A DNA stretch of 64,000 bases, from NCBI GenBank assembly GCA_034429995.1, contig DAOUEZ010000012.1:15464-79463 (forward strand). The letters run 5' to 3'. Source of the DNA: Dehalococcoidia bacterium. Its GTDB lineage: Bacteria > Chloroflexota > Dehalococcoidia > SM23-28-2. Both the position numbers and the translations under genes were made by a program. Position 1 is the stretch's first letter. Each line of letters starts with the position of its first letter. The notes beneath the pieces are model-generated. The model was not told where the DNA came from. It was given only the letters and a program-made list of their open reading frames with translations, and ran no database searches. Shown in pieces: positions 8,740 through 47,094 of the stretch.

Positions 8740-9294
8740 TCAGGTCACCGTGAGGGCGACCTGCTGAGCGCAGAGAGGGCATTCGGTCGGGTCGTAGCTG
8801 GGCAGTTCGAGGGCTAGGCAGGCAAAAAAGGGCAGGCCGAAGTCTACGCGGCCGGCAGTGCGATCTACCAGGACAGCCACCCCGATGGGCTCACCCCCTG
8901 CGGCCTGCACTGCCTCCAAGACATCGCGGATGCTGCTGCCGGTGGTAAGAACATCGTCCACCACCAGAGTGCGATCGCCTGGAGCCACCTGAAAGCCGCG
9001 GCCGAAGCGCCGTCCCTCCTTCACCTTCTCGGCGAAGATGCCCCTGACTCCCAACTGGCGAGCTACCTCGTAGCTGAGGATGATCCCCCCGGTGGTGGGT
9101 GCCGCCACCAGTTGCACCCCTTGGGGGCGAAAGTGATCGGCTATCAGGCGGCAGAGCCTTTCGGTGTAGGGCGGCTGCTCTAGAAGGCGAAACTTCTCTA
9201 CGTAGAGGGGCGAATGGCGGCCGGAGGCCAGGAGGAAGTGGCCGTCGAGGATGGCGCCCACCTCCCGTAGGAGATTCTCGATCTCTTCCGACAT
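8740..9294 (-). CDS. pyrE: Orotate phosphoribosyltransferase
   Basis: PRPP-binding motif LVVDDVLTTGSS and OPRTase N-terminal FLLASGRHSPLYVE. Confidence 0.85.
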   Translation of the reverse strand: MSEEIENLLREVGAILDGHFLLASGRHSPLYVEKFRLLEQPPYTERLCRLIADHFRPQGVQLVAAPTTGGIILSYEVARQLGVRGIFAEKVKEGRRFGRGFQVAPGDRTLVVDDVLTTGSSIRDVLEAVQAAGGEPIGVAVLVDRTAGRVDFGLPFFACLALELPSYDPTECPLCAQQVALTVT

Positions 9295-9295
9295 G

Positions 9296-10261
9296 CTAGT
9301 TTTCCGAGTCCTCGCTGGCGAAGGAAACGGAGTGGTTCGGGGCGGGGCCTACGTCCGAGAGGGGCCAATAGGAGAACCAGGTCTTACCGATAATTTTCCC
9401 TTCGGGGATCATTCCCATTGTACTCACCCGCGAATCGCTGCTGTTGTTGCGGTTGTCGCCCAGGACGAAGTACTGGTCGTCGGGGATAACCCAGGAACAC
9501 TTGCCGCTGCATCTGGTTTGGCTGTCTATATACGGCTCGTCCAAGGGCTCACCATTGATGTAAACTACTCCATCGCGAATCTCCACCTTGTCTCCGGGCA
9601 CGCCGATGATCCGTTTGATGAAGTCGCGGTCTCGGCCTTTGGGCGACTCGAAGACCACCACATCACCTCGCTCGGGGCCGCCGAACAGATGGTGAGTGGA
9701 GTCGTCGCCGGCATCGAAGAAGGGGACAAAGTCGAAGAGTCCCAGGTCGAACTGGGCGTAGGCCAGCTTGTTGACAATGATGTACTGGTCATTCTCCAGG
9801 CTGGGGAGCATGCTGCTCCCTTCCACCTTGAAGTTCTGGGCAGTCGATTGGACGGCCAGGAAGACGAGCACGGCTAGAAGGAGCGTCTCGACGACCTCCC
9901 GATAGATGGTAAGGTAGCGGCGCTCGATGCGGCGGGGGAAGATCCCGAGTTGAATGACGCCAGCCAATATGGAGATGGCAGCAAGGGCTATCGGCCCGGC
10001 AAAGATCACGCGGTTCCATCCGGTACCGTGAGTGGCGATCCTGGCAAGCGCACCGACCGCGAACGCTGCGAAACCGACAATGAAGGAAGGAAGGGCGGCT
10101 GCCCAGCGGATTCCCCTGGCGGCAACCTCCTCTTCGGGCTTGCCCGCGGGCTCGTAGGGCGGCCCTGGCTCGATCCAGGGCTCGAGCCAGGGCTCGAATT
10201 CGGGGTCTACCGGTGGACGTGGCCACTGCATAACAACACCGAGGAGGGCTGGGACAATCAC
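9296..10261 (-). CDS. lepB: Signal peptidase I with Pro-rich N-terminal extension
   Basis: GSSMLPSL (box B Ser), KRIIGVPGD (box D Lys), VLGDNRNNSSDSR (box E). Confidence 0.8.
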   Translation of the reverse strand: MIVPALLGVVMQWPRPPVDPEFEPWLEPWIEPGPPYEPAGKPEEEVAARGIRWAAALPSFIVGFAAFAVGALARIATHGTGWNRVIFAGPIALAAISILAGVIQLGIFPRRIERRYLTIYREVVETLLLAVLVFLAVQSTAQNFKVEGSSMLPSLENDQYIIVNKLAYAQFDLGLFDFVPFFDAGDDSTHHLFGGPERGDVVVFESPKGRDRDFIKRIIGVPGDKVEIRDGVVYINGEPLDEPYIDSQTRCSGKCSWVIPDDQYFVLGDNRNNSSDSRVSTMGMIPEGKIIGKTWFSYWPLSDVGPAPNHSVSFASEDSEN

Positions 10262-12766: not shown

Positions 12767-12837
12767 GGCCGCTCATCCTGAGCCTGTCGAAGGGTGAGCG
12801 GGGGCTCATGGTTCGACAAGCTCACCATGAGCGGCCC
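12767..12837. repeat. REP-like palindromic element (SLSKGE-type repeat family)
   Basis: gagcctgtcgaagggtgagcgg core plus gctcatggt/accatgagc inverted repeat; same core recurs in opposite orientation at 35307-35438. Confidence 0.6.
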
Positions 12838-30730: not shown

Positions 30731-32809
30731 TCAGGCGTCACTGATCCGCCTGCGCTTCTGCGCCACATAGTCCACCATGATGTACTGGCCCAGCCTATCG
30801 GGCGTAGTGTAGAACACTCGCCCCTTGTTCATACTGGCGATCTGATTGACGAACTCCTTGAGGTAATAGTTACGGTCGAGCATGAAGGTGTTGATGATGA
30901 TCCCCTTGCGGGTGGCGCGGCGCACCTCCCTGAGGGTCTCGCGGATGGTGATGGGGCTGGGTGGGTAGGCAAAGAAGGAGCGGCCGTGCTCCAGGTGAGC
31001 GGTGGGCTCGCCGTCGGAGATCATGATCACCTGGCGGGTGCCTGCCTTGTGCCTGGCCAAGAGCCGTTGGGCGAGCATGAAGGCGTGGTGCATGTTGGTG
31101 CCCAGCACCGATTCGTCCCAGCGAAGGTAGGGAAGCTGCTCCGCGGTTAACTCGCGGGCGTAAGCGGAGAAGCCCAGGATGTAGAGGGTGTCGCGGGGGA
31201 ACTGGCTGCGAATGAGGTTGTTCAGGGCCAGAGCCACCTTCTTGGCGGCCTGGAAGCTACCCCGCAGGGCCATGGACCAGGAGAGGTCGAGCATCATCAC
31301 CGTGGCCGTCTGGGTGAGCTGCTCCGAGCGGTAGACCTCGAAGTCGTCCTTGTCCAAGTGCAGAGGCAGGCCCGGCCCCTCGCGGAAGACGGCGTTCATG
31401 ATGGTTTGGCCGAGGTGGAGGTCGAAGCGGTCACCGAACTCGTACCTCTTGATCTCGTCGGTGCGCTCGCCGCCCGAGCCGCGCTCAGGCAAGGGATGCT
31501 TGCCCTGGGCGCCTTTCTTGAGCTGGGCGTAGATCTCGCCCAGGGCCTTCTGGCCGATCTTGCGGATGGCGCGAGGGGTTAGCTCCCAGGTTGCCCCCTT
31601 GCGGCGAATGTAGCCCGCCTCCTCCAGCACCTCCAGGAATTGCCTGAGCTGGCGGAAGGTCTCGTAGGCCTCCTCGCCCAGGAGTTCCCGTAACTTATCC
31701 TCGTCGATGTCGTCGACGTTGCCGCCATACTGCATGCGCTCCAACTGCCTCTCCAGCTCGTCCAGTCCCTGGAGGCGGTCCATGAGGCGCAGGGCCTCAA
31801 GGAGGTCCAGCTCCTCATCGCCGTGGAAGGGATAGCGGTTGCTCGGGTCGCGCATGGGGTGGAGGATGTCCAGATTGACGGCCAGCTCGTACAGGTCGTG
31901 CTGAAGCTCAGGGTCGCTGGTCTTCTCCATCAGCAGGTCCTGAAGCTGGCGGCGCATGTCGTCGGGCAGGCTGTCCAGAAGGCTCTGCATGACGGAGAGC
32001 TGGTGCTGCATTTGGGCGATCAGTTCCTCCAGGCTCTGAGGCCCCGACTCGTCGGGGAACATGTCGCCGTAGCTCTGCATGAACTGCTGGAAGTCCGGCT
32101 GGCCGTCGGCCATCTTCTCGGAGAGCATATGGTTCAGCTCGCGCACCATCTCCTTGAGGCGCTGCATCTCCTCGGGCGTCAGGCTGGCGATCTGGCTGGA
32201 TAGGTTCCTGAAGAAGGAGTCCATCATCGCCTGCTTGAGCATCTCCATGAGCTCCTGGAACTTGCGGCCAGCCTCGGGGTCCATGAACTCGTAGTTCTGC
32301 AGCTCCTTCACCTGGCCGCCCACGTCCTCGGGCAGGCTCTCCAGGAAGTCCTTCTTCTTCTCAGCGATGTCCTTGAGCATCTGGGCGAACTGGCGATCCG
32401 GTTGACCCTGTTGGACGCCGGCCTCCTTCATCGCCTCCTGGAAGGCGTGGAGGGGGCTCTCCCGCCCCTCAAGCTGGCGGACGGCCTCGTCCAGCCGTCG
32501 CTCGACGGTCTCATTCTCCAGCCGCACGATCTCTTGCAGGCGCTTCTGGATGTCGTCGAGCGCTGAGCTCAGGTTGTAGTGGTCAAGCATCTGGCGGCGT
32601 TGCTGGCGAAGCTGCTGCAGGAGCTGGCGCAGGCCCTGGAAGCGCTGGCCGAGGGGATTGTGCATGCCTCGCTGTAACAGGTTGCGCAGGGCGTGCTGAA
32701 GGTCACCGAAGCTCATCAGGTCGTCGGTGATGCTGGCCAGGACGTCGTCGGCGTCCAGGGGCGGTATGTCCTGGCTGCCGTCCCACTCCGAGTAGCGGTA
32801 GGCGTACAT
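30731..32809 (-). CDS. ChlD/NorD-like protein: long coiled-coil Gln/Glu-rich region plus C-terminal VWA domain
   Basis: C-terminal MIDAS MMLDLSWSMA...ISDGEPT; operonic with ChlI-like ATPase (1-bp spacing). Confidence 0.6.
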   Translation of the reverse strand: MYAYRYSEWDGSQDIPPLDADDVLASITDDLMSFGDLQHALRNLLQRGMHNPLGQRFQGLRQLLQQLRQQRRQMLDHYNLSSALDDIQKRLQEIVRLENETVERRLDEAVRQLEGRESPLHAFQEAMKEAGVQQGQPDRQFAQMLKDIAEKKKDFLESLPEDVGGQVKELQNYEFMDPEAGRKFQELMEMLKQAMMDSFFRNLSSQIASLTPEEMQRLKEMVRELNHMLSEKMADGQPDFQQFMQSYGDMFPDESGPQSLEELIAQMQHQLSVMQSLLDSLPDDMRRQLQDLLMEKTSDPELQHDLYELAVNLDILHPMRDPSNRYPFHGDEELDLLEALRLMDRLQGLDELERQLERMQYGGNVDDIDEDKLRELLGEEAYETFRQLRQFLEVLEEAGYIRRKGATWELTPRAIRKIGQKALGEIYAQLKKGAQGKHPLPERGSGGERTDEIKRYEFGDRFDLHLGQTIMNAVFREGPGLPLHLDKDDFEVYRSEQLTQTATVMMLDLSWSMALRGSFQAAKKVALALNNLIRSQFPRDTLYILGFSAYARELTAEQLPYLRWDESVLGTNMHHAFMLAQRLLARHKAGTRQVIMISDGEPTAHLEHGRSFFAYPPSPITIRETLREVRRATRKGIIINTFMLDRNYYLKEFVNQIASMNKGRVFYTTPDRLGQYIMVDYVAQKRRRISDA

Positions 32810-32810
32810 C

Positions 32811-34211
32811 CTACCCCCTATACTGGGCCCGGCCGGCGATCTTGTCCTTGTTGAGGCGTCGGTTGAGGTGCAGGCCCTCCAGCACGAACTCCACCGCCGC
32901 GGCCGTGAGGCCGGGTCGGCCTTGCCCCTCCAGCTTCTCCACTGCCCGTGCCAGTCCCTCCACCTTCTTAGTCATGCGCACGTATTCGGCGGAAGGGATG
33001 GTGTCGGCCACCTCCAGCGTAAACCCTTCCTTGAAGCGAGCCACCACCGGCTCCAGCTCGCTGAGGCTTAGATGGCGGTTGAACACCGTGCTCACCGCCC
33101 CCTGGATGAACTTCTCGATGATCTGCCCTTCTCGCTCTTCCTCCACCGTCTCGAACTCCAGCTTGCCGCTAAGGGAGGGGATGATGTAGGGCAGGTCGCT
33201 GATGCGGGGCACGATGTCTCTTTCCTGCAGGCGAATGGCGCGGCGGAAGGCGTTGGCCAGGAGGCTCTCGTAGCCGGTGATGGAGGCCCGCACGGAGACG
33301 CCGGAGCGCTGGTTGATATCGGGGCTGCGGCGAGCCAGGCGGGTGATCTCGGCCACCACTTCCTTCATGTAGGGCGGCACAGTTACCGGACGGCCGTCTC
33401 CTTCGAAGGGGGTGCGCTCCTGCTCCATGATGGCGATCTCGTATTCGGCGTTGCGGGGATAATGGGTGCGAATCTGAGCGCCGTAGCGGTCCTTGAGGGG
33501 GGTGATGATGCGGCCGCGATTGGTGTAGTCCTCGGGGTTGGCGCTGGCCACTACGAAGACGTCCAGGGGCAGGCGGATGCGATAGCCGCGGATCTGGACG
33601 TCTCGCTCTTCCATGATGTTGAAGAGGCCCACCTGGATGCGCTCCACCAGGTCTGGGAGCTCGTTGATGCAGAAGATGCTGCGGTTGTGGCGAGGGATGA
33701 GGCCGTAGTGAATGGTCAGCTCATCGGAGAGGTAGCGGCCCTCGGCCACCCTTATGGGGTCCACCTCGCCGATGAGGTCGGCGATGGTGATGTCGGGGGT
33801 GGCCAGCTTCTCGCCGTAGCGCTCGTCGCGACCGAGCCAGGTGATCTCCACGTCCTCTCCCTCTTCGGCCAGCCAGTCGCGGCAGCGCTTGCAGATGGGG
33901 TGATAGGGGTTGTCGTTGATCTCGCAGCCGGCGATGGCCGGCACTTCGTCGTCGAGCAGTGATACAAGGGCGCGAATAAGGCGCGACTTGGCCTGCCCCC
34001 TCTCGCCCAGGAAGATGATGTCCTGGCCGGAGAGGATGGCGTTCTCCAGGTGGGGAATCACGGTATCGTCAAAGCCAATAATGCCCGGGAAAAGCCGCTC
34101 GTTGGAGCGGATCTTCGCGATGAGGTTCCGGCGCATCTCCTCCTTGACGCTGCATACCTGGTAGCCGGAGCTGCGTAGCTCACCAATGGTTGTCGGTTTC
34201 TTGCTGGTCAC
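32811..34211 (-). CDS. ChlI/BchI-like AAA+ ATPase (Mg-chelatase I-subunit family)
   Basis: Walker A GERGQAKS, Cys-containing insertion (CEINDNPYHPICKRCRD) as in ChlI, Walker B/sensor region FCINELPDL, arginine finger region. Confidence 0.65.
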   Translation of the reverse strand: MTSKKPTTIGELRSSGYQVCSVKEEMRRNLIAKIRSNERLFPGIIGFDDTVIPHLENAILSGQDIIFLGERGQAKSRLIRALVSLLDDEVPAIAGCEINDNPYHPICKRCRDWLAEEGEDVEITWLGRDERYGEKLATPDITIADLIGEVDPIRVAEGRYLSDELTIHYGLIPRHNRSIFCINELPDLVERIQVGLFNIMEERDVQIRGYRIRLPLDVFVVASANPEDYTNRGRIITPLKDRYGAQIRTHYPRNAEYEIAIMEQERTPFEGDGRPVTVPPYMKEVVAEITRLARRSPDINQRSGVSVRASITGYESLLANAFRRAIRLQERDIVPRISDLPYIIPSLSGKLEFETVEEEREGQIIEKFIQGAVSTVFNRHLSLSELEPVVARFKEGFTLEVADTIPSAEYVRMTKKVEGLARAVEKLEGQGRPGLTAAAVEFVLEGLHLNRRLNKDKIAGRAQYRG

Positions 34212-35263
34212 GGCGCTTCCTTGCTGGCTCCTCGTGCCCCACCCCCTTGCCCCTCCTGGGCGAGGAAGCGAGCCACCTCATCCCTGGCGAATGTGGACAG
34301 GGCCATCGTGCCGCCGCCACGTTTTCCTATTATAACGCCCGCATCCTTTGGTGTAACCGTGCCGATGCGCGCGGCAGCTATGCCTGCCTCCTCCAGAGCG
34401 GCCAGGAGTCGGTCGCTGTCCTGCGGGGGTAGGGCTATGAGCAGGGCACCCGAAGCGAGCAGCCCCAGCGGGTCCAGCCCCGCTGCCTGGCACACGGCCC
34501 GAGTGGCTGGCAGCACGGACACCGCCGCCTCTTCGAGCCGCATTCCCACGTCCGAGGCCTCGGCCATCTCATAGAGGGCGGTGGCCAGACCTCCTTCGGT
34601 GGGGTCGTGCATGGCGTGGACGGAGGTCTTGTCCACCGCCAGGAGGGCCTCCCTGACCACGCTGATGCCCGGCTGGAAGATGTAGCCCCTGGCCGTCTCC
34701 AGCACGTCGGCGGCCACGCCCTTGCGGCGCAGGGCATCCGCTGCCTCGCGGGCGAGCACCGCCGTGCCCTCGATGGCGATGCCCTTGGTCAGGATCACGT
34801 GGTCGCCCGGCTGGGCTCCCGACCCTCGCACCAGCCTGTCGCGTTCCACCTCCCCCAGCATTGCCCCCACCACGATCGGCCGGTCGAGGCGATGGGTGAT
34901 CTCGAAGTGGCCGCCGACGAGCTCGACCTTCATTTGGCGGCAGGCGTCGAGGATCTGGTCGAATATGCCCTCCGCCAGCGACTGGCCGGCCCCCTCGGGC
35001 AGGAGGACGGTGGCCAGGAACCAGGCCGGCCTGGCCCCCATGCAGGCCACGTCGTTGGCGTTGATGTGGACGGCGTACCAGCCGATGAGGTCGGTGGCGA
35101 AGGTGATGGGGTCGCTTTTGGCCACCAGCAGCCGGGGGCCCATGTCGATGACGGCAGCGTCCTGGCCCACCCCCGGCCCCACCAGCACGCGCCCCGACTC
35201 GTCGGGGCCGATGCGGGCCAGCAGCTGGCCTAGGAGCTGATTGGGAAGCTTGCCGATATCCAT
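34208..35263 (-). CDS. AIR-synthase-related protein (PurM fold; HypE-like but lacking C-terminal PRIC motif)
   Basis: AKSDPITFATD and INANDVACMGA motifs align to HypE/ThiL/PurM N-domain; DPTEGGL in C-domain; C-terminus GASKEAP (no PRIC); 4-bp overlap with downstream ATPase gene. Confidence 0.55.
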   Translation of the reverse strand: MDIGKLPNQLLGQLLARIGPDESGRVLVGPGVGQDAAVIDMGPRLLVAKSDPITFATDLIGWYAVHINANDVACMGARPAWFLATVLLPEGAGQSLAEGIFDQILDACRQMKVELVGGHFEITHRLDRPIVVGAMLGEVERDRLVRGSGAQPGDHVILTKGIAIEGTAVLAREAADALRRKGVAADVLETARGYIFQPGISVVREALLAVDKTSVHAMHDPTEGGLATALYEMAEASDVGMRLEEAAVSVLPATRAVCQAAGLDPLGLLASGALLIALPPQDSDRLLAALEEAGIAAARIGTVTPKDAGVIIGKRGGGTMALSTFARDEVARFLAQEGQGGGARGASKEAP

Positions 35264-35306
35264 CGTGGTTGGGTCACCATCGAGACTCTTGGCAAATGCC
35301 CCGTTC

Positions 35307-35438
35307 GCCCTTCGACAGGCCCTTCGGCTGCGCTCAGGACAGGCCCTTCGGCCGCGCTCAGGGCAGGCCCTTCGACAGGCTCAGGGTGAGCGGTCTTGAG
35401 TCCTATGCATATCGCCGCTCGTGGTGAGCCTGTCGAAC
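35307..35438. repeat. Cluster of REP-like repeats (three tandem caggcccttcg..gctcagg units plus inverted copy), SLSKGE-type family
   Basis: Direct reading; core ttcgacaggctcagggtgagcgg is reverse-complement match (1 mismatch) of element at 12767-12837; spurious ORF here translates PEPVEGPALSAAEGP. Confidence 0.65.
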
Positions 35439-35649
35439 CATGAACGGACATGCGGGGTATTTCAACAGGCTGCATCGTTTCCCGAAGCCTTGGCTCGAAT
35501 CATACTATGTGGCGACGTGGCGTCAAGCCAGATGGGCCTGGCTGTCTTCCATCGCGGCTCTTCCCTTGCCAGCCCTCGCGGCTGCGAGTAGAATAGGGCC
35601 GCCGTCGAGGCGTGACGTTACGTAGCGAGCTTCCAGGAGGGCGAGGCAA

Positions 35650-36699
35650 ATGGCAAACGACGAGCACGTCAGGGTAGTGCGGCAGGGCGCGGAGGCCATA
35701 GCCGAGTGGCGGTGGCGGAACCCCACGGGGGGGCTTGATCTGTCCGGGGCTCGCCTCGCGGAGGCTATGCTACCCCAAGCGGACCTCGTTTTGGGGGACC
35801 TGAGCAGGGCGGACCTCCATGAGGCTAACCTGGCCGGGGCTCTTCTGTCGTTCGCTAACCTCGACCGGGCCTACCTTTTGGGCGCCAACCTCTCAGGGGC
35901 CGACCTCAGAGGGGCGTGGCTGGGGGAGGTGAACTTCGCATTTGCGGATCTAGAAGGGGCCAATCTCAGCGAGGCCTTTCTCCACGGTACTAGGTTCGAG
36001 GCGTCCGTGGTGTCCCAGGCTGATTTCTCGAACGCCAAGTTAAGCTACGCGTCTTTCGCTGGCGTGGATCTGAGCCAGGCTCGTGGGTTGGGAAGGGCCG
36101 ACCACAGGGCGCCTAGCAGCGTCGGCGTCGAAAGCCTCCTAGCCTCGGTGCGTGGAGCGGGAAACCAGCTGACGCCGGACCTCCGGACGTTCTTCCGAAG
36201 CGCCGGCGTGCCCGCGGAGCTGCTGGAGGCGCTACCCCGGATCGTAGCCGCGGTGCAATACTACAGCTGCTTCGTTGCCTATGGGGAGCCTGACGTGGCA
36301 TTCGCTCGCGAGCTGTGCGAGCACCTAACGGGTAAGGGTGTCTCTTGCTGGCTGTATGAAATGCACGCGACCCCGGGCCAGCGCACGTGGACCGAGATCG
36401 TCCGCAGGAGGCGGGAAGCCGACAAGGTCGTGGTGGTCTGCTCCGCCGATGCGCTGGTGCGCGACGGGGTGCTCAAGGAGATCGAGGAACAAGTAGATGA
36501 AGATCCTGACAAGATCGTCCCGATCTCCCTGGATGACCTCTGGAAGGCACCCGGCTTCAGGGTCATGCGCGCAGAGCGTGACCTAAAGCCCTATTTGCTG
36601 GAGCGGAACCACGCGGACTTCGCCAACCTCGACTACGAGGACGCGCTGGAGCGTCTACTAAAGGGGCTGAGGCGAGAAACCGAGCAGAAGGACGAGTAG
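35650..36699 (+). CDS. Pentapeptide-repeat / TIR-domain fusion protein
   Basis: N-terminal residues approx 28-170 are A(D/N)LxxA(N/D)L pentapeptide repeats; C-terminal CFVAYGEPDVAFARELCEHLTGKGVSCWLYE...KVVVVCSADALVRDGVLKEIEEQ matches TIR_2 pattern (FxSY..D..FA..L...L...G...W...vvvlS...SxW...E) including candidate catalytic Glu. Confidence 0.55.
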   Translation: MANDEHVRVVRQGAEAIAEWRWRNPTGGLDLSGARLAEAMLPQADLVLGDLSRADLHEANLAGALLSFANLDRAYLLGANLSGADLRGAWLGEVNFAFADLEGANLSEAFLHGTRFEASVVSQADFSNAKLSYASFAGVDLSQARGLGRADHRAPSSVGVESLLASVRGAGNQLTPDLRTFFRSAGVPAELLEALPRIVAAVQYYSCFVAYGEPDVAFARELCEHLTGKGVSCWLYEMHATPGQRTWTEIVRRRREADKVVVVCSADALVRDGVLKEIEEQVDEDPDKIVPISLDDLWKAPGFRVMRAERDLKPYLLERNHADFANLDYEDALERLLKGLRRETEQKDE

Positions 36700-36915
36700 G
36701 CCGTCCTGCCGCTGGCTAGCGCCCCGGCCAAACGTTGACACCTATCGGAACCTGCTGCTAAACTCAGGCGAATGGACGGAGCCCCGGTCTGAATGTAGCC
36801 TGCTCTTGCTGGTGGTGGAAGCCCGGCAAGGTGGTGGAGGGAGATCGAAGAGCTACTTCTAGACTTCGTCGAGTACGTCTACGACCTCATCGAGTGGCCA
36901 GGGGTCATCGCCCTG

Positions 36916-37494
36916 ATGGCCATCGAGAGTGCCTGCATCCCCCTCCCCAGCGAGATCATCATGCCCCTGGCCGGCTGGTTTCTGGTGGACGACCGCGGGC
37001 TGGGGGTGGAGTGGCTGCTGCTGGCTGCCTTTTGCGGCGCCCTGGGCAACCTGATTGGCTCTCTGATGGCCTACGCCGTGGGGGCCTGGGGCGGTCGGCC
37101 GCTCCTTCTGCGCTACGGGCGCTATCTGCTCATCTCCCGCCACGAAGTGGAGCAGGCCGAGCGCTGGTTCGCCCGCTACGGCGATCGGGCGGTCTTCATC
37201 TCGCGGGTGCTGCCAGTAGTACGCACCTTCATCAGCTTGCCGGCGGGGGTCGCCCGCATGAACATCTGGCGGTTCACCATCCTCACCTTCGTCGGGTCCT
37301 TCCCCTGGTCGCTGGGGCTGGCCTGGGCGGGCTTCCTTCTGGGCGAGAACTGGGAGCGGATCAGGGAGTGGATGCGTCCGGCGGACATACCCATCCTGAT
37401 AGTCCTGGCAGCGCTGGTGGCCTGGTACATATATCGACGGGTGCGCACTGTTCTGCGGGAGGCTGAGCCCTCGGTGTCGGGCAGTAAGGAGTAG
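36916..37494 (+). CDS. DedA family membrane protein (N-terminus possibly truncated/mis-started)
   Basis: PLAGWF..., GRYLLISRHEVEQAERWFARYGDRAVFISRVLPVVRTFISLPAGV DedA motifs; 39 DedA-like codons upstream in frame without a start codon. Confidence 0.7.
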   Translation: MAIESACIPLPSEIIMPLAGWFLVDDRGLGVEWLLLAAFCGALGNLIGSLMAYAVGAWGGRPLLLRYGRYLLISRHEVEQAERWFARYGDRAVFISRVLPVVRTFISLPAGVARMNIWRFTILTFVGSFPWSLGLAWAGFLLGENWERIREWMRPADIPILIVLAALVAWYIYRRVRTVLREAEPSVSGSKE

Positions 37495-37503
37495 CGGTCG
37501 ACT

Positions 37504-38679
37504 ATGCGAACCCTGCTAGTCTTCTTGGCGTTGGTTATCCTGGCGGCACTTGCTGTAGGCGGCTGCAATGGGGGAGGGGAGGTCAGCCCCACGCCCACTG
37601 GCACCGGCACGCCGCTGCCCACTGGTGTGCCCGAGGAAGGGCTAAGGCTGCTGTACAAGGAGTTCGGCAGCGAGGCCGATGTCATCTGGCTGGCGTTGGC
37701 CGCCGAGCCCCAAAGGCGGGCGAAGGTGGCTGAGGTGGAGCACGCCCCCGGCGTTGGCATATCGGCCAGCCTTTCCCCCGACGGCGAGCGTATCGCCTAT
37801 CTGGCGCTGCCCGCTGCTGGCGGAGACCCGGCCCTGGATGCCCAGGCCTGGCTGCTGGACGTGGATAGCGGTAAGATACGCCTGCTGGCCAGCGATCTGG
37901 ACGGGGCCAGCAAGCCCGTTTGGTCGCCCGATGGAAGCTCCATCGTCGTGCGTCGGAACGGGCCCTGGGAGGAGATGGGCCGAACTGCCTCGCTGCTGGG
38001 GCTGGATGTCAGCGACGGCAGTGAGACCGTTATTCTGGAAGAGCAAGAGGTCTTCGAGCTTTTCCCCATCGGTCATTCGCCCGATGGCGTCTCCCTCTAC
38101 TTCGCTCAGGTCGTCCTTAGCGGCACTCACTTCGGCGCTGTGGCCACAGCAGGGGGCAGTCCCCGATTGCTGGTTCAGGCCAGCGACGAGTCGGCCCGCG
38201 ACTGGCATCTCTCCCCCGATGGCTCCCGCGTTACCTTTCTGGCCGGCCAGCCCACGGACGATCGGATAGCTATCCGGGCCTTCGTAGTCGAGCTTGTTGA
38301 GGGTGGAGAGCCGCAACCCCTGTCCCAACTGTCGGAGGGTCTGGATACTGGCGACCATTTCAATCCCCTGTGGCATCCGGATGGGGAGCGCATCACGGTG
38401 GGGCGGCCGCCTGCCGATGGAGCCAGTGCTGCGGCGCTGGTCTCCCTGGTGGGAGGGGAACTGGAGGAGGTCACACCTGGCCCCGATCAGGGCTTTGACG
38501 TGCCGGCAGGCTGGTCGCCCGAGGGCGACTATCTGGCTGTGCGCTCCTTCGAGGGGAGTTCGGCCGCTCAACCCGGCCGGGAGCATCTGGTGATCATCGA
38601 GTTGGGTAAGGGACGGCAGACAGTGGCCGATAAAGGCAACCTGGAATTCATCGGTTGGCTGACCAGTGATTCGCAGTAG
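37504..38679 (+). CDS. TolB-like PD40 beta-propeller lipoprotein
   Basis: Lipobox LAVGGC; repeated WSPDGS/HSPDGV/LSPDGS/WHPDGE/WSPEGD PD40 repeats. Confidence 0.55.
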   Translation: MRTLLVFLALVILAALAVGGCNGGGEVSPTPTGTGTPLPTGVPEEGLRLLYKEFGSEADVIWLALAAEPQRRAKVAEVEHAPGVGISASLSPDGERIAYLALPAAGGDPALDAQAWLLDVDSGKIRLLASDLDGASKPVWSPDGSSIVVRRNGPWEEMGRTASLLGLDVSDGSETVILEEQEVFELFPIGHSPDGVSLYFAQVVLSGTHFGAVATAGGSPRLLVQASDESARDWHLSPDGSRVTFLAGQPTDDRIAIRAFVVELVEGGEPQPLSQLSEGLDTGDHFNPLWHPDGERITVGRPPADGASAAALVSLVGGELEEVTPGPDQGFDVPAGWSPEGDYLAVRSFEGSSAAQPGREHLVIIELGKGRQTVADKGNLEFIGWLTSDSQ

Positions 38680-40330
38680 GCTACGTCTCATAGTTGTTCT
38701 CTCATCGTTGAGCCTGGCCCTTCTGCTGCAGGCCGACGGGCTGCCGCCGTCGGCGCGAGCGGGCGACTTCGATCTGTGCGCCGCGACGGGCAGCCCCATG
38801 GGGCCTTTCGACGTCATCTCCTACGATGCCGAGGACTATCGCACCGTCTATACCCAGACCTTCGAGCTGGCGGCTGTCGATGGCCTCTTCCCCGGCGACC
38901 TCTATTTCGGCTTGCCTCCTTTGGAGACAGGCCCTCGGTTGCCCCGCACTCCGGTGCCACCGACGCCGACGGGGACAGCGACAGGTACGCCTGCAGGCTC
39001 GCCGACGCCGACAGAGACAGCGACAGGTACGCCCACAAGCTCGCCGACGCCGACGGAGACAGCGACCGCCACGCCCACAAGCTCGCCGACGCCGACGGAG
39101 ACAACGACCGGTACGCCCGCAGGCTCGCCGACGCCGACGGAGACAGCGACCGCTACGCCCGCAGGCTCGCCGACGACTACAGGCGCCTCCGCTCCTACCC
39201 TCACCTCCACGCCTTCCCCCACCCCCTCTGCTACCTCTTCGCCGACGCCCTTCCCGCGCGTCGGACCCGGCCTCACCGAGCCCTACATTCCCCCCACTAT
39301 CCTCAAGGCCATCGGCTGGGTCGAGAGCTCGTGGTCCCAGGCGGCCTTCTCAGTCCCCTACGGGGGCATCGGCCCGGCCCTCGTCTCCCGTGACTGCGGC
39401 TATGGCATCATGCAGGTCACCACCGGCATGGAGAACACCACGGGCGAGCCGACGCAGGAGCAACTCATGGTGGCCGCTCACTTTGCGTACAACATCGCCC
39501 GCGGCACACGCATCCTGGTCGACAAATGGAACCTGGCCACCGAACTGCGCCCCATTGTGGCCGACCGCAACCCCCAGGTCATCGAGGACTGGTACTACGC
39601 TATCTGGGGTTACAACGGCTTCGTCTTTGTGAACCACCCTCTTAACCCTCGCTTTCCCGCCTGGCCACGCACCCCTTATAGCTGTGGCCCCTTCGACGAT
39701 GGTTTCGGCCACGACCGCTCTCAGTACCCTTATCAGGAGCTTGTCTTGGGCTGCATGGCTCATCCTCCTGAGCCAGAGGGTAGCCCCCTCTGGCAGGCTC
39801 AGGAGGTCATCCTGCCCGACCTGTCGTACAAGGACTTCGCCGAAGCCTTGAAGCTGGAGAACTTCGCCTGCGACTCTCCCGACTACTGCTACGACGACAT
39901 GGACATGCCGCGGCCCGCCGGCTCCCATGTGGACCCGACGGAAGTGGGCGGTGACCGCTCGGCGATAGTGGGGTCACCGGTACTGGAGGTGAGCACCCTC
40001 AACGTCGAGCTGACTGCCCGCCCCGAGGGCCTGAGCCAATCCGCCGAAGTGACGATCTCCAACCCTGGTACCGGCGTCCTCGTCTGGACGGCCACCCCTT
40101 CGGCTTCCTGGCTTCAGCTATCGGCGAAACAGGGGCTCGCCTTGGGCAAGGATCTGGGCGGCGACACATCTGCCCTGACCATTCAGGCCAACCTGGCAGG
40201 CCTGGCCAAGGGCAGATATGTGGGCACCATAACCCTGGAGGTGCCCTACGCCGGTGGCAACCCCAAGACCATCACGGTGACTGTCAATGTTCGCGCCCAG
40301 TCCTTCGTGCCAGGCATCACCAAGAGCTAG
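38666..40330 (+). CDS. Secreted protein with Thr/Pro-rich 14-aa tandem repeats and lysozyme-like (SLT/transglycosylase-like) domain
   Basis: Signal peptide; (PTPTETATGTPAGS)x5; GWVESSWSQAAF...GYGIMQV resembles SLT catalytic region; GTG start overlapping upstream gene. Confidence 0.5.
   Translation: MIRSRLRLIVVLSSLSLALLLQADGLPPSARAGDFDLCAATGSPMGPFDVISYDAEDYRTVYTQTFELAAVDGLFPGDLYFGLPPLETGPRLPRTPVPPTPTGTATGTPAGSPTPTETATGTPTSSPTPTETATATPTSSPTPTETTTGTPAGSPTPTETATATPAGSPTTTGASAPTLTSTPSPTPSATSSPTPFPRVGPGLTEPYIPPTILKAIGWVESSWSQAAFSVPYGGIGPALVSRDCGYGIMQVTTGMENTTGEPTQEQLMVAAHFAYNIARGTRILVDKWNLATELRPIVADRNPQVIEDWYYAIWGYNGFVFVNHPLNPRFPAWPRTPYSCGPFDDGFGHDRSQYPYQELVLGCMAHPPEPEGSPLWQAQEVILPDLSYKDFAEALKLENFACDSPDYCYDDMDMPRPAGSHVDPTEVGGDRSAIVGSPVLEVSTLNVELTARPEGLSQSAEVTISNPGTGVLVWTATPSASWLQLSAKQGLALGKDLGGDTSALTIQANLAGLAKGRYVGTITLEVPYAGGNPKTITVTVNVRAQSFVPGITKS
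38959..39175 (+). repeat. Coding 42-bp tandem repeat x5 (ccgacgccgacggagacagcgac...gcaggctcg)
   Basis: Direct reading; encodes PTPTETATGTPAGS repeats. Confidence 0.85.
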
Positions 40331-40955: not shown

Positions 40956-41035
40956 GGTGCCCCCGTAGCTCAAGCGGACAGAGCGGCTGCCTTCTAAGCA
41001 GTTGGTTGCAGGTTCGAGTCCTGCCGGGGGCACCA
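40956..41035 (+). tRNA. tRNA-Arg (anticodon TCT)
   Basis: Cloverleaf: acceptor GGTGCCC/GGGCACC, anticodon stem GCTGC/GCAGT with loop CTTCTAA, T-arm GCAGG-TTCGAGT-CCTGC; CCA not encoded. Confidence 0.8.
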
Positions 41036-41123
41036 GCGTTTCGTTCTCCTCGAAGAGGGAAACTACTGGCAGGCTGAACAGCCGGGGCTTCTTTTCGCTA
41101 GGGGTCTCGGGAGAGGTAGGTTT

Positions 41124-42716
41124 ATGCAATCGAAGCAAGCGATCGAAGAAGCATTGGGAAGAAGGCTGCTTCTGGGGGAGCTAGTCGCTCGCAACGCCCG
41201 CAAGTTTCCCGACAGGGAGGCCGTTGTCTACGGGGATACACGCCTGACCTATGGTGAGTTTAACGCCCGCGTCAATCGCCTGGCTCACGCCCTCATGGAT
41301 ATGGGAATCAAGAAAGGGGAGAAGGTGGCCATCCTTCTCTTCAACTGCAACCAGTACCTGGAGGCCTACTTCGCCCTGGCCAAAATGGGCGCAATAGCCG
41401 TTCCCGTGAACTTTCGCCTCCACCCTGAGGAGTTCAGGTATATCGTCAACAATGCCGATGCCGTGGCTTTCGTCCTGGGGGAGACCTTCGTTGGCACCAT
41501 CAAGGGGATTCAGAAGGGCCTCCCCCAGGTCAAACAGTACATCTCGGTGACTGAGAAGCCGGTGGAAGGGATGCTTCATTTTGAGACCCTCCTCCACGAG
41601 TACCCTGACGATGAACCGCTTGTCCTGCTGGAGGAGGACGACCCCGTTTTCATCATGTACACCGCCGGAACCACCGGCAGGCCCAAGGGAGCCGTCCTTA
41701 CCCATAAGGGTCAGGTTGTGGTCTGGACTCTGGCCACCCTTGAGGTTAGCCGCGAACCCGATCTCGGTGACATGTCGCTCTGGCGAGCTTGCGCTGTCCC
41801 TCCCATCTTTCACATAGCCTCCTTTGGCATCTGCCTGGCCTATCTCCTTCTTGGGGCGACGGTCATCTTGCCCACCCAGGTCTTCAATCCGGTGGAGGTC
41901 ATGCAACTGCTGGAGCAGGAGAAGTGCAACTCGGTTCTCCTGATTCCCGCCATGGGCAACTTCCTGCTGCAGATGCCCAACCTGGACAAGTACGACACAA
42001 GTTCTCTGAAGGCTTGGTTCTCAGGAGCGGCTATCCTGCCCACCGAGCTGCGAAAACGGATCATGGAAGCCTTCCCCCAGGTGAAGATCTTCGACTGCTT
42101 TGGACAGACGGAAACGAATGCGCTGGTCTCTATCCTGAGGCATTCGGATGCGGAGCGAAAGGTGGCCTCGGTGGGCAGAGGCCTTCCCTTCATCGAGATC
42201 CGGGTGGTGGACGAGGAGGACAGGGATGTGCCAGTGGGCGAGGTGGGCGAAGCCATCTATCGCAGCCCCGCCATCATGAAGGAATACTACAATGACCCAG
42301 AGGCGACGGCCGCGGCCTTCAGGGGTGGTTGGTTCCACTCAGGTGACGCCGTCCGCCAGGATGAGGAAGGCTTCTTCTACGTTGTGGATCGCAAGACGGA
42401 CATGATCGTCAGCGGCGGGGAGAATATCTATCCGGCGGAGATCGAGGAGGTCCTCTACAAGCACCCCAAGATCCTGGAGGCGGCGGTCATCGGCGTCCAC
42501 GATGAGCAATGGGGCGAGAGCGTCAAGGCCATCGTGGTTACCAAGCCGGGGGAAACGCTGACCGAGGAGGAGGTTATCGAGTTCTGCAAGGGGCACCTGG
42601 CCAGCTACAAGAAGCCCAGGTCGGTCGATTTCATCGATGCCCTCCCCCGCAATCCGGCCATGAAAGTTCTGAAGACGGTGCTGCGGGAGAGATACGGCAA
42701 GGCGGTAAAGTACTAG
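41124..42716 (+). CDS. Long-chain fatty-acid--CoA ligase / AMP-dependent synthetase
   Basis: AMP-binding motif YTAGTTGRPKGAVLTH, GEIxxRSPAIMKEYYN, ...DRKTDMIVSGGENIYPAEIE. Confidence 0.85.
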   Translation: MQSKQAIEEALGRRLLLGELVARNARKFPDREAVVYGDTRLTYGEFNARVNRLAHALMDMGIKKGEKVAILLFNCNQYLEAYFALAKMGAIAVPVNFRLHPEEFRYIVNNADAVAFVLGETFVGTIKGIQKGLPQVKQYISVTEKPVEGMLHFETLLHEYPDDEPLVLLEEDDPVFIMYTAGTTGRPKGAVLTHKGQVVVWTLATLEVSREPDLGDMSLWRACAVPPIFHIASFGICLAYLLLGATVILPTQVFNPVEVMQLLEQEKCNSVLLIPAMGNFLLQMPNLDKYDTSSLKAWFSGAAILPTELRKRIMEAFPQVKIFDCFGQTETNALVSILRHSDAERKVASVGRGLPFIEIRVVDEEDRDVPVGEVGEAIYRSPAIMKEYYNDPEATAAAFRGGWFHSGDAVRQDEEGFFYVVDRKTDMIVSGGENIYPAEIEEVLYKHPKILEAAVIGVHDEQWGESVKAIVVTKPGETLTEEEVIEFCKGHLASYKKPRSVDFIDALPRNPAMKVLKTVLRERYGKAVKY

Positions 42717-47017: not shown

Positions 47018-47094
47018 GGTGGGCGTAGCGTAGCGGTTAACGCGCCAGGTTGTGGCCCTGGAGATCGAGGGTTCAAATCCCTCCGTCCACCCCA
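47018..47094 (+). tRNA. tRNA-His (anticodon GTG) with extra 5' G(-1) and encoded CCA
   Basis: Acceptor GTGGGCG/CGTCCAC, anticodon stem CCAGG/CCTGG loop TTGTGGC, T-loop TTCAAAT; G-1 opposite discriminator C. Confidence 0.8.

Follow-up and report, generated by a model that had tools for sequence, protein, structure and literature searches.

A pentapeptide-repeat–TIR gene in a variable chromosomal slot

We analysed a 64,000-nucleotide stretch of contig DAOUEZ010000012.1 from a Dehalococcoidia bacterium, hereafter the window, in which a sequence-only reading had singled out an open reading frame (ORF) as a stand-alone fusion of pentapeptide repeats and a TIR domain. The ORF list placed it exactly where that reading had, at 35650-36699 on the plus strand, as a complete coding sequence of 349 amino acids and a stop codon. 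Its start codon is supported by the N-terminus MANPEHV, which is kept family-wide with an invariant M1, and by a GGAGG ribosome-binding site that can be read from the sequence at 35636-35640 (+), 9 nt before the ATG. A consensus scan (10/12) returned a sigma-70-like promoter candidate, TTGCCA-17-TAGAAT, at 35566-35594 (+), 55 nt 5' of the start codon; this candidate is a consensus match only and sits at the edge of the stretch that is still conserved with relatives lacking the gene. No intrinsic terminator was found near the gene. A separate promoter-like site belongs to the DedA/VTT gene downstream, so the pentapeptide–TIR gene looks monocistronic. Its GC content resembles that of its surroundings, there is no paralogue within the 64-kb window, and 23 metagenomic or metagenome-assembled genome (MAG) contigs encode an identical protein (P0001). 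The pentapeptide–TIR gene is confirmed as real and stand-alone.

We compared the locus with four close relatives (L027-L030), Dehalococcoidia contigs that were found via homologues, 85-91% identical, of the AIRS-family gene upstream of the pentapeptide–TIR gene. A tblastn search detected the gene in none of the four. When window positions 33500-38500 were compared with these contigs by blastn, nucleotide similarity stopped at 35534-35604 on the AIRS side in all of them and resumed in L028 at 36726, on the DedA side, leaving a cassette at 35599-36725 that has no counterpart in the close relatives. Both flanks are conserved in L028, where unrelated DNA of about 2.65 kb takes the place of the 1.1-kb cassette (ribosome-binding site and ORF) and carries three unrelated small ORFs that have no Pfam or PADLOC matches. 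Because the gene is absent from the four close relatives and its slot in L028 is held by unrelated small ORFs, it is accessory, and it forms a cassette in a variable chromosomal slot.

The upstream intergenic flank contains a palindromic element at 35301-35447 that resembles repetitive extragenic palindromic sequences or miniature inverted-repeat transposable elements (REP/MITE-like). It comprises a 24-nt tandem repeat and a 23-nt inverted repeat and is not part of the gene. The element is dispersed: its core TTCGACAGGCTCAGGGTGAGCGG and an inverted partner recur, and the copy beside the gene carries a 24-nt tandem duplication. Further core copies lie at window positions 12769-12835 (-) and on the contigs L027 (516-759), L028 (7961-8026), L023 (7132-7158), L019 (6484-6508) and L009 (6161-6181); in L023 and L019 the copy also adjoins family genes. 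Both the window and L027 carry the element upstream of their AIRS gene, whereas L028, L029 and L030 lack it at the orthologous position; the element is thus itself polymorphic for presence and absence. The earlier description of the gene as flanked by REP-like repeats therefore holds for the upstream side, whereas nothing comparable was found downstream.

A helical cap, a β-helix of variable length and a conserved linker

The protein was aligned with its family (60 sequences in total) and modelled with AlphaFold2, which gave a full-length predicted local distance difference test score (pLDDT) of 93.2 and a predicted template modelling score of 0.82. Alignment and model together divide it into four parts: a helical cap, a pentapeptide-repeat β-helix, a three-helix linker and a TIR domain. 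The N-terminal cap (residues 1-28; 35650-35733, +) has two modelled helices, at residues 4-11 and 14-23, and the consensus MANPEHVxVVRxGAxAIAEWRRxNP. Within it, M1, H6 and G13 are invariant and W20 is kept in at least 90% of the sequences.

The β-helix (residues 29-145; 35734-36084, +) is built of about 23 repeats and is the variable part of the family. Pfam profile PF00805 (Pentapeptide) matched it in four stretches with 100.8 bits against a cut-off of 20.2 (E-value of 2.6 × 10−29). Across the family, the successive repeat positions hold A (71%), D or N (66%), L (87%), S or T, and G. The model is a regular right-handed quadrilateral β-helix with one short strand per five residues and a pLDDT of 95-99 over residues 1-190, and the top 50 Foldseek matches in the PDB were pentapeptide β-helices or effector proteins, such as NleL, that contain one. 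Profile, model and fold search thus all agree with the N-terminal pentapeptide repeats recognised by the sequence-only reading. The repeat region is acidic, with a net charge of -8 and an isoelectric point (pI) of 4.4 in the window protein and a mean pI of 4.7 in the family.

The linker (residues 146-203; 36085-36258, +) has modelled helices at residues 160-169, 176-185 and 189-203. Five of its residues are invariant (G146, L147, F181, G186 and I198), and seven more are kept in at least 90% of the sequences (H152, P155, S156, G159, F182, V187 and P188). When the linker and TIR together were used as a query, matches of other architectures started only at about query position 55-60; as judged from these matches, the three-helix linker is specific to the pentapeptide–TIR architecture.

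The four parts differ in how well they are conserved: mean identity to the window protein is highest in the TIR (0.67), reaches 0.60 in both the cap and the linker, and is lowest in the repeats (0.41). Repeat regions are between 82 and 217 amino acids long, equal to 16 to 43 repeats, a 2.6-fold spread in length. Despite this spread, 58 of the 60 sequences have the same length modulo 5, which shows that the repeat region changes by single pentapeptides, each worth a quarter-turn, and not by whole coils.

A TIR domain of the SPARTA subtype

The C-terminal part (residues 204-340; 36259-36669, +) is a βαβ TIR domain of a SPARTA-like subtype. The sequence-only reading had assigned it to TIR_2 and had named two conditions that would refute its interpretation, the lack of a TIR profile match and a candidate Glu that does not align with the catalytic glutamates of known TIR NADases; the interpretation withstood both. 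PF13676 (TIR_2) matched residues 208-337 with 55.1 bits against a cut-off of 28 (E-value of 1.3 × 10−14), spanning profile positions 2-122 of 122, and the flavodoxin-like α/β TIR fold was confirmed, with confident models both for the full-length protein and for the TIR alone. Low pLDDT within domains was confined to residues ~240-250, the βB–αB loop (BB-loop). Cat1, a signal-activated TIR enzyme, and ThsB are among the structural neighbours of the domain.

A profile of the family TIR was searched against the sequences of the PDB. The closest TIR among solved structures was TIR-APAZ of SPARTA (8qlo, 8j7s, 8fex and 8ifk), with 8qlo as the top match (E-value of 4 × 10−7). The two share the αC motif R(D/E)GVLKE(I/L), in which Gly replaces the usual Trp of WxxxE. 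We then mapped TIR-APAZ residues onto the family programmatically from the profile alignment (29 sequences). Glu77 aligns with the candidate catalytic glutamate Glu277 (codon GAG, 36478-36480, +), which is the first E of KEIEE and is invariant in 60/60 and 29/29 sequences, and Trp46 aligns with Trp247 (36388-36390, +), a W in 29/29. The glutamate that the sequence-only reading had placed at the catalytic position of the NADase, an enzyme cleaving nicotinamide adenine dinucleotide (NAD), thus coincides with an experimentally validated residue: in SPARTA, the E77A mutation of TIR-APAZ abolished NADase activity (PMC9097488). Trp46, which was proposed to stack on the nicotinamide, is one of four proposed substrate contacts of TIR-APAZ, together with Thr11, Phe45 and Tyr105 (PMC10474274). 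By experiment, SPARTA needs both Glu77 and Trp46 (PMC9097488; PMC10474274). By its sequence, the domain belongs to the SPARTA TIR-APAZ NADase subtype and has the catalytic Glu and Trp positions intact.

A large family with paralogue birth and death

We next determined how widespread the architecture is. A word-indexed search identified at least 1,422 homologues. The best 120 all combined Pentapeptide and TIR_2, were 311-518 amino acids long and shared 42-77% identity with the window protein (100% for the identical P0001); those named by source came from Dehalococcoidia MAGs and one Bathyarchaeota MAG. A scan of species-representative genomes yielded 13 loci in Chloroflexota and three in Bathyarchaeia. 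An exhaustive search with the linker and TIR module resulted in 109 clusters (50% identity) at E ≤ 10−30 and 631 at E ≤ 10−10. More than 2,300 proteins with the same architecture, from Chloroflexota, Verrucomicrobiota and other groups, form a sister clade (seed P0254), and some of these are auto-labelled "TIR domain/Pentapeptide repeats" by JGI. Our literature searches found no description or test of a pentapeptide–TIR fusion, and papers containing both terms treat them separately. This agrees with the view of the sequence-only reading that the architecture is uncharacterised, yet with thousands of homologues, some already labelled automatically, the family is large and its architecture is abundant, not rare.

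The Bathyarchaeia MAGs (L015, L016, which equals L010, and L018) contain full-length members that are 42-51% identical to the window protein. The TIR in Bathyarchaeia is nearly as conserved as it is within Dehalococcoidia, which implies an exchange across the boundary between bacteria and archaea among anaerobes of the sediment.

Additional copies, in tandem or as fragments, were seen at five of the 20 family loci. The predicted protein P0003 reads across a pair of tandem paralogues, and in L009 a tandem paralogue at 9127-10116 has the pentapeptide and linker parts but has lost the TIR. Frameshifted or fragmented copies were found at 5205-7559 in L019 and at 6001-6986 in L025. In the tandem pair of L007, the repeats are 55% identical and differ in number by five, and the cap, linker and TIR are 76-84% identical. 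The family therefore undergoes tandem duplication, pseudogenisation and variation in repeat number while its cap, linker and TIR are conserved.

The search with the linker and TIR module also showed that TIRs 42-55% identical to that of the window protein occur in other fusions. The TIR of P0195, at 55% identity, is joined to a retron-type reverse transcriptase (PADLOC RT-TIR_XII, E-value of 10−128). Other partners include Schlafen/AlbA_2, HATPase_c, bSEFIR, a glycoside-hydrolase-like region, a region with a weak AAA_16 match and unknown N-terminal regions of 540 amino acids. Such reshuffling of one TIR subtype among partners is typical of defence effectors.

Genomic neighbourhood

Within 10 kb upstream, the gene is preceded by genes for, in order, a histidine kinase, SMC_N, DAGK, a TrkA channel, a vWA protein, a MoxR-like ATPase and an AIRS-family protein. 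It is followed by DedA, PD40, BACON_2, an AMP-binding enzyme and Feo; the Pfam-based annotations on both sides are of the housekeeping type. The DedA neighbour reported by the sequence-only reading matched PF09335 (VTT_dom), and the absence of a recognisable partner, which it had also reported, holds across 20 family loci. The contexts of divergent members all differ from one another, and all-against-all clustering of ORFs from the 20 loci identified no recurrent partner, only shadow ORFs inside the family gene itself.

Two candidates for a conserved partner were considered and rejected. A gene of about 480 amino acids resembling HpaB/4-hydroxybutyryl-CoA dehydratase occurred in 5/20 loci, directly upstream in L012, L017 and L020 and within a few kb in L007 and L011. 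An AMP-binding enzyme occurred in 3/20; its gene immediately precedes the family gene in L007 and L023 and follows it at a distance of 5 kb in the window. Both probably reflect lineage synteny, the alternative being a recurrent insertion context.

A vWA/MoxR pair lies between the AIRS gene and the TrkA channel at 30731-34211 on the minus strand (approximate positions, taken from L001 coordinates), with the MoxR-like AAA ATPase at 32811-34211 and a 692-residue vWA protein of the Mb0984/Rv0959 type. The pair is present in the window, L027 and L030 and missing in L028 and L029, so it is accessory too. Pairs of vWA and MoxR proteins were earlier suggested to be conflict systems (PMC7159879). We rejected a functional connection with the pentapeptide–TIR gene, as L027 and L030 carry the pair without that gene and the other family loci lack the pair. 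The idea that the slot is a defence hotspot was likewise rejected, as neither Pfam nor PADLOC matched what occupies it in L028 and L030.

Further downstream, the BACON_2-domain protein (554 amino acids; 38666-40330, +) has a long Pro/Thr-rich tandem-repeat linker (TPTETATGTP...). The repeat locally flips GC skew and AT skew at 38750-39750 and creates long shadow ORFs in other frames. An Rfam search of the 30-42 kb stretch found no RNA elements besides the tRNA at 40959. Right after this tRNA-Arg(tct) (40959-41035), GC content drops from ~0.64 to 0.57 (window 40959-42000), which could indicate an integrated element at the tRNA. Two further tRNAs lie at 47019 and 49188.

Comparison with known TIR and pentapeptide-repeat proteins

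Head-to-tail TIR assembly completes composite active sites in SPARTA, SARM1, TIR-STING and TIR-SAVED. For SPARTA, NADase activation needs TIR self-assembly with ordering of the BB-loop (PMC10474274), and by analogy we propose the same mechanism for the pentapeptide–TIR protein, in which the BB-loop is the part modelled with low confidence. The two systems differ in several respects. There is no APAZ domain in the window protein, and the PADLOC model Aga_TIR-PNTD1-PNTD2 was matched only at positions 14-135 of 443. Neither the surroundings of the gene (±10 kb) nor the other family loci contain a Piwi/Argonaute gene. The TIR is C-terminal here and N-terminal in SPARTA, and in place of a guide-RNA-loaded Argonaute the putative sensor is a β-helix.

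The retron RT-TIR_XII fusion P0195 is similar in that its TIR is C-terminal and in that it also combines, in a single-gene sensor–effector, a variable sensor with a constant TIR. Its sensor is, however, a reverse transcriptase, whereas the window protein has no RVT_1 match. The sensors of TIR-STING, TIR-SAVED, Cat1 and SARM1 bind cyclic nucleotides or NMN/NAD, whereas the pentapeptide–TIR protein has no STING, SAVED, CARF or ARM domain and no linked cyclase. Thoeris differs as well: no PF08937 or PADLOC Thoeris match was found, and no locus has a ThsA-type neighbour (SIR2 or Macro/TM with SLOG).

The repeat part shares the right-handed quadrilateral β-helix and the A(D/N)LXX repeat with MfpA, Qnr and AlbG and with cyanobacterial Rfr proteins (HetL, NP275/276). 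These proteins have no enzymatic domain, whereas the pentapeptide–TIR protein adds a helical linker and a TIR, and its helix varies widely in length. The NCBIfam equivalog cut-offs were also missed, with 29.6 bits against 240 for Qnr and 29.4 against 360 for MfpA. The pentapeptide–TIR protein falls within the pentapeptide-repeat and TIR_2 families, but it belongs neither to SPARTA, Thoeris, the Qnr/MfpA families or retron RT-TIR nor to the TIR effectors linked to CBASS or CRISPR. It probably works like the oligomerisation-activated TIR NADases, with a different and unstudied sensor.

Proposed function

We propose that the gene encodes a cytoplasmic sensor–effector on a single polypeptide, an NAD-cleaving enzyme that is activated by oligomerisation and acts against mobile genetic elements. 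We favour this interpretation because it accommodates an accessory single gene, a constant and catalytically equipped SPARTA-type TIR, variable repeats and the presence of the same TIR on other sensors, but we consider the case for and against it to be evenly balanced. By analogy with SPARTA, SARM1, TIR-STING, TIR-SAVED and Cat1, the TIR of the resting monomer would be inactive. A multimeric or repeated ligand of an invader, bound by the β-helix, would bring two or more TIRs together head-to-tail, and their assembly would complete the composite active sites and order the BB-loop. The assembled enzyme would then cleave NAD+, resulting either in depletion, as abortive infection or growth arrest, or in a signal derived from ADP-ribose (ADPR). 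Variation in the number and sequence of the repeats may tune ligand specificity.

The pentapeptide β-helix of MfpA and Qnr is acidic and mimics DNA. As the β-helix of the window protein is acidic too and related to these DNA mimics, it is an attractive idea that it may serve as bait for DNA-binding proteins of invaders.

The anti-invader role is strengthened, though not proven, by the accessory status of the gene, by the birth and death of paralogues and by the shuffling of the TIR subtype. Several observations weigh against the proposed sensor–effector. The ligand and role of the β-helix are purely conjectural, and its acidity is modest. The host is uncultured, and NADase activity and a defence role are read from sequence features and analogy. 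Of the five residues implicated in catalysis by SPARTA, three are not kept by identity (T11 is replaced by E/Q, F45 by T and Y105 by E/A/Q); an invariant residue, W298, lies two residues before the Tyr105 column. A mean TIR identity of 67% across bacteria and archaea is unusually high for a defence effector. PADLOC lacks a model of the architecture, and only the TIR part was matched. No known defence genes were identified with Pfam within ±10 kb in the window, and PADLOC matched neither the flanking proteins nor those that fill the slot instead in L028 and L030. Finally, the family is absent from the viral contigs of IMG/VR and the phages of INPHARED, and the plasmids of PLSDB gave only two distant TIR matches; carriage by phages or plasmids was rejected on these grounds.

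Alternative explanations

The best-placed alternative, although an unlikely one, keeps the enzyme but not the killing by NAD+ depletion. ThsB of Thoeris is a signal-producing TIR, and the window TIR might similarly make a cyclic-ADPR-type or ADPR-conjugate messenger that activates an effector encoded elsewhere. The intact catalytic Glu and Trp are in line with such an enzyme, the very strong conservation of the TIR would fit one specific product recognised by a partner, and both Cat1, which is signal-activated, and ThsB are found among the structural neighbours. However, the 20 loci revealed no recurrent neighbour and no SLOG, Macro, SIR2 or SAVED partner, the ThsB_TIR profile PF08937 was not matched, and the closest relatives, SPARTA (PMC9097488) and RT-TIR (PADLOC labels), are described as NAD-depleting effectors.

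Next in rank, and slightly less probable still, is a cellular factor without a role in defence. Its β-helix would imitate DNA towards an enzyme of the host, for example gyrase, in the manner of MfpA and Qnr, and its TIR would be a protein–protein scaffold or a regulated NAD-linked switch in normal physiology. The match of the pentapeptide region to MfpA, Qnr and AlbG by structure and profile, its acidity, the housekeeping context and the high sequence conservation across phyla and domains would all be consistent with this. Conversely, NCBIfam scores of 29-32 bits stand against Qnr/MfpA cut-offs of 240-450, and the gene is missing in four close relatives, varies in copy number and has pseudogenes. 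A fixed host target would sit poorly with a helix whose length varies 2.6-fold and whose steps each turn the cap by 90°, and the invariance of the catalytic Glu argues for an enzymatic function.

In our view, the gene is very unlikely to be, instead of an immunity gene, a toxin-like element of the selfish or addictive sort or a toxin used between microbes. Its accessory, patchy, single-gene nature, its spread across the boundary between bacteria and archaea and the adjoining REP/MITE-like element might be expected of such an element. Nevertheless, no antitoxin or immunity ORF adjoins the gene, its protein has neither a signal peptide nor a secretion-associated domain, no transposase or integrase lies nearby, and the gene was not found on plasmids or phages. 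There is practically no chance that the ORF is non-functional, as a chance frame or a decaying pseudogene: certain family members elsewhere are fragmented (L019, L025), but this one is full-length with a conserved start and ribosome-binding site, shares 23 invariant and 79 nearly invariant positions with 60 homologues, occurs in identical copies on many independent assemblies and has a confident structure prediction, so that the Pfam, homologue, alignment and model evidence effectively refutes the idea already.

Implications

The sensor–effector interpretation can be extended to a bolder claim, which we regard as improbable and rank between the non-defence factor and the toxin: that pentapeptide–TIR proteins give uncultured sediment Chloroflexota and Bathyarchaeia a widespread, as yet unrecognised means of abortive infection from a single gene, in which a DNA-mimicking β-helix of evolvable length baits DNA-binding proteins of invaders and thereby assembles a SPARTA-type TIR NADase. 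If true, it would be the first immune receptor to sense through DNA mimicry and a TIR immune system common to bacteria and archaea.

Innate immunity in bacteria, plants and animals shares TIR domains as its enzymatic core; how they are activated differs between systems and is still being discovered. A TIR joined to a repeat-type sensor would, as a general theme, not surprise a specialist. The pentapeptide β-helix mimics DNA in its few characterised cases and has no established role as an immune sensor. The family, with thousands of members in bacteria and archaea, behaves like an accessory conflict gene. With about 350 amino acids, a confident model and E277A as a clear catalytic-dead control, the protein is compact and directly testable. 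If its β-helix is the sensor, it would represent a new recognition principle in prokaryotic immunity and would provide a function for one branch of the mostly enigmatic pentapeptide-repeat superfamily.

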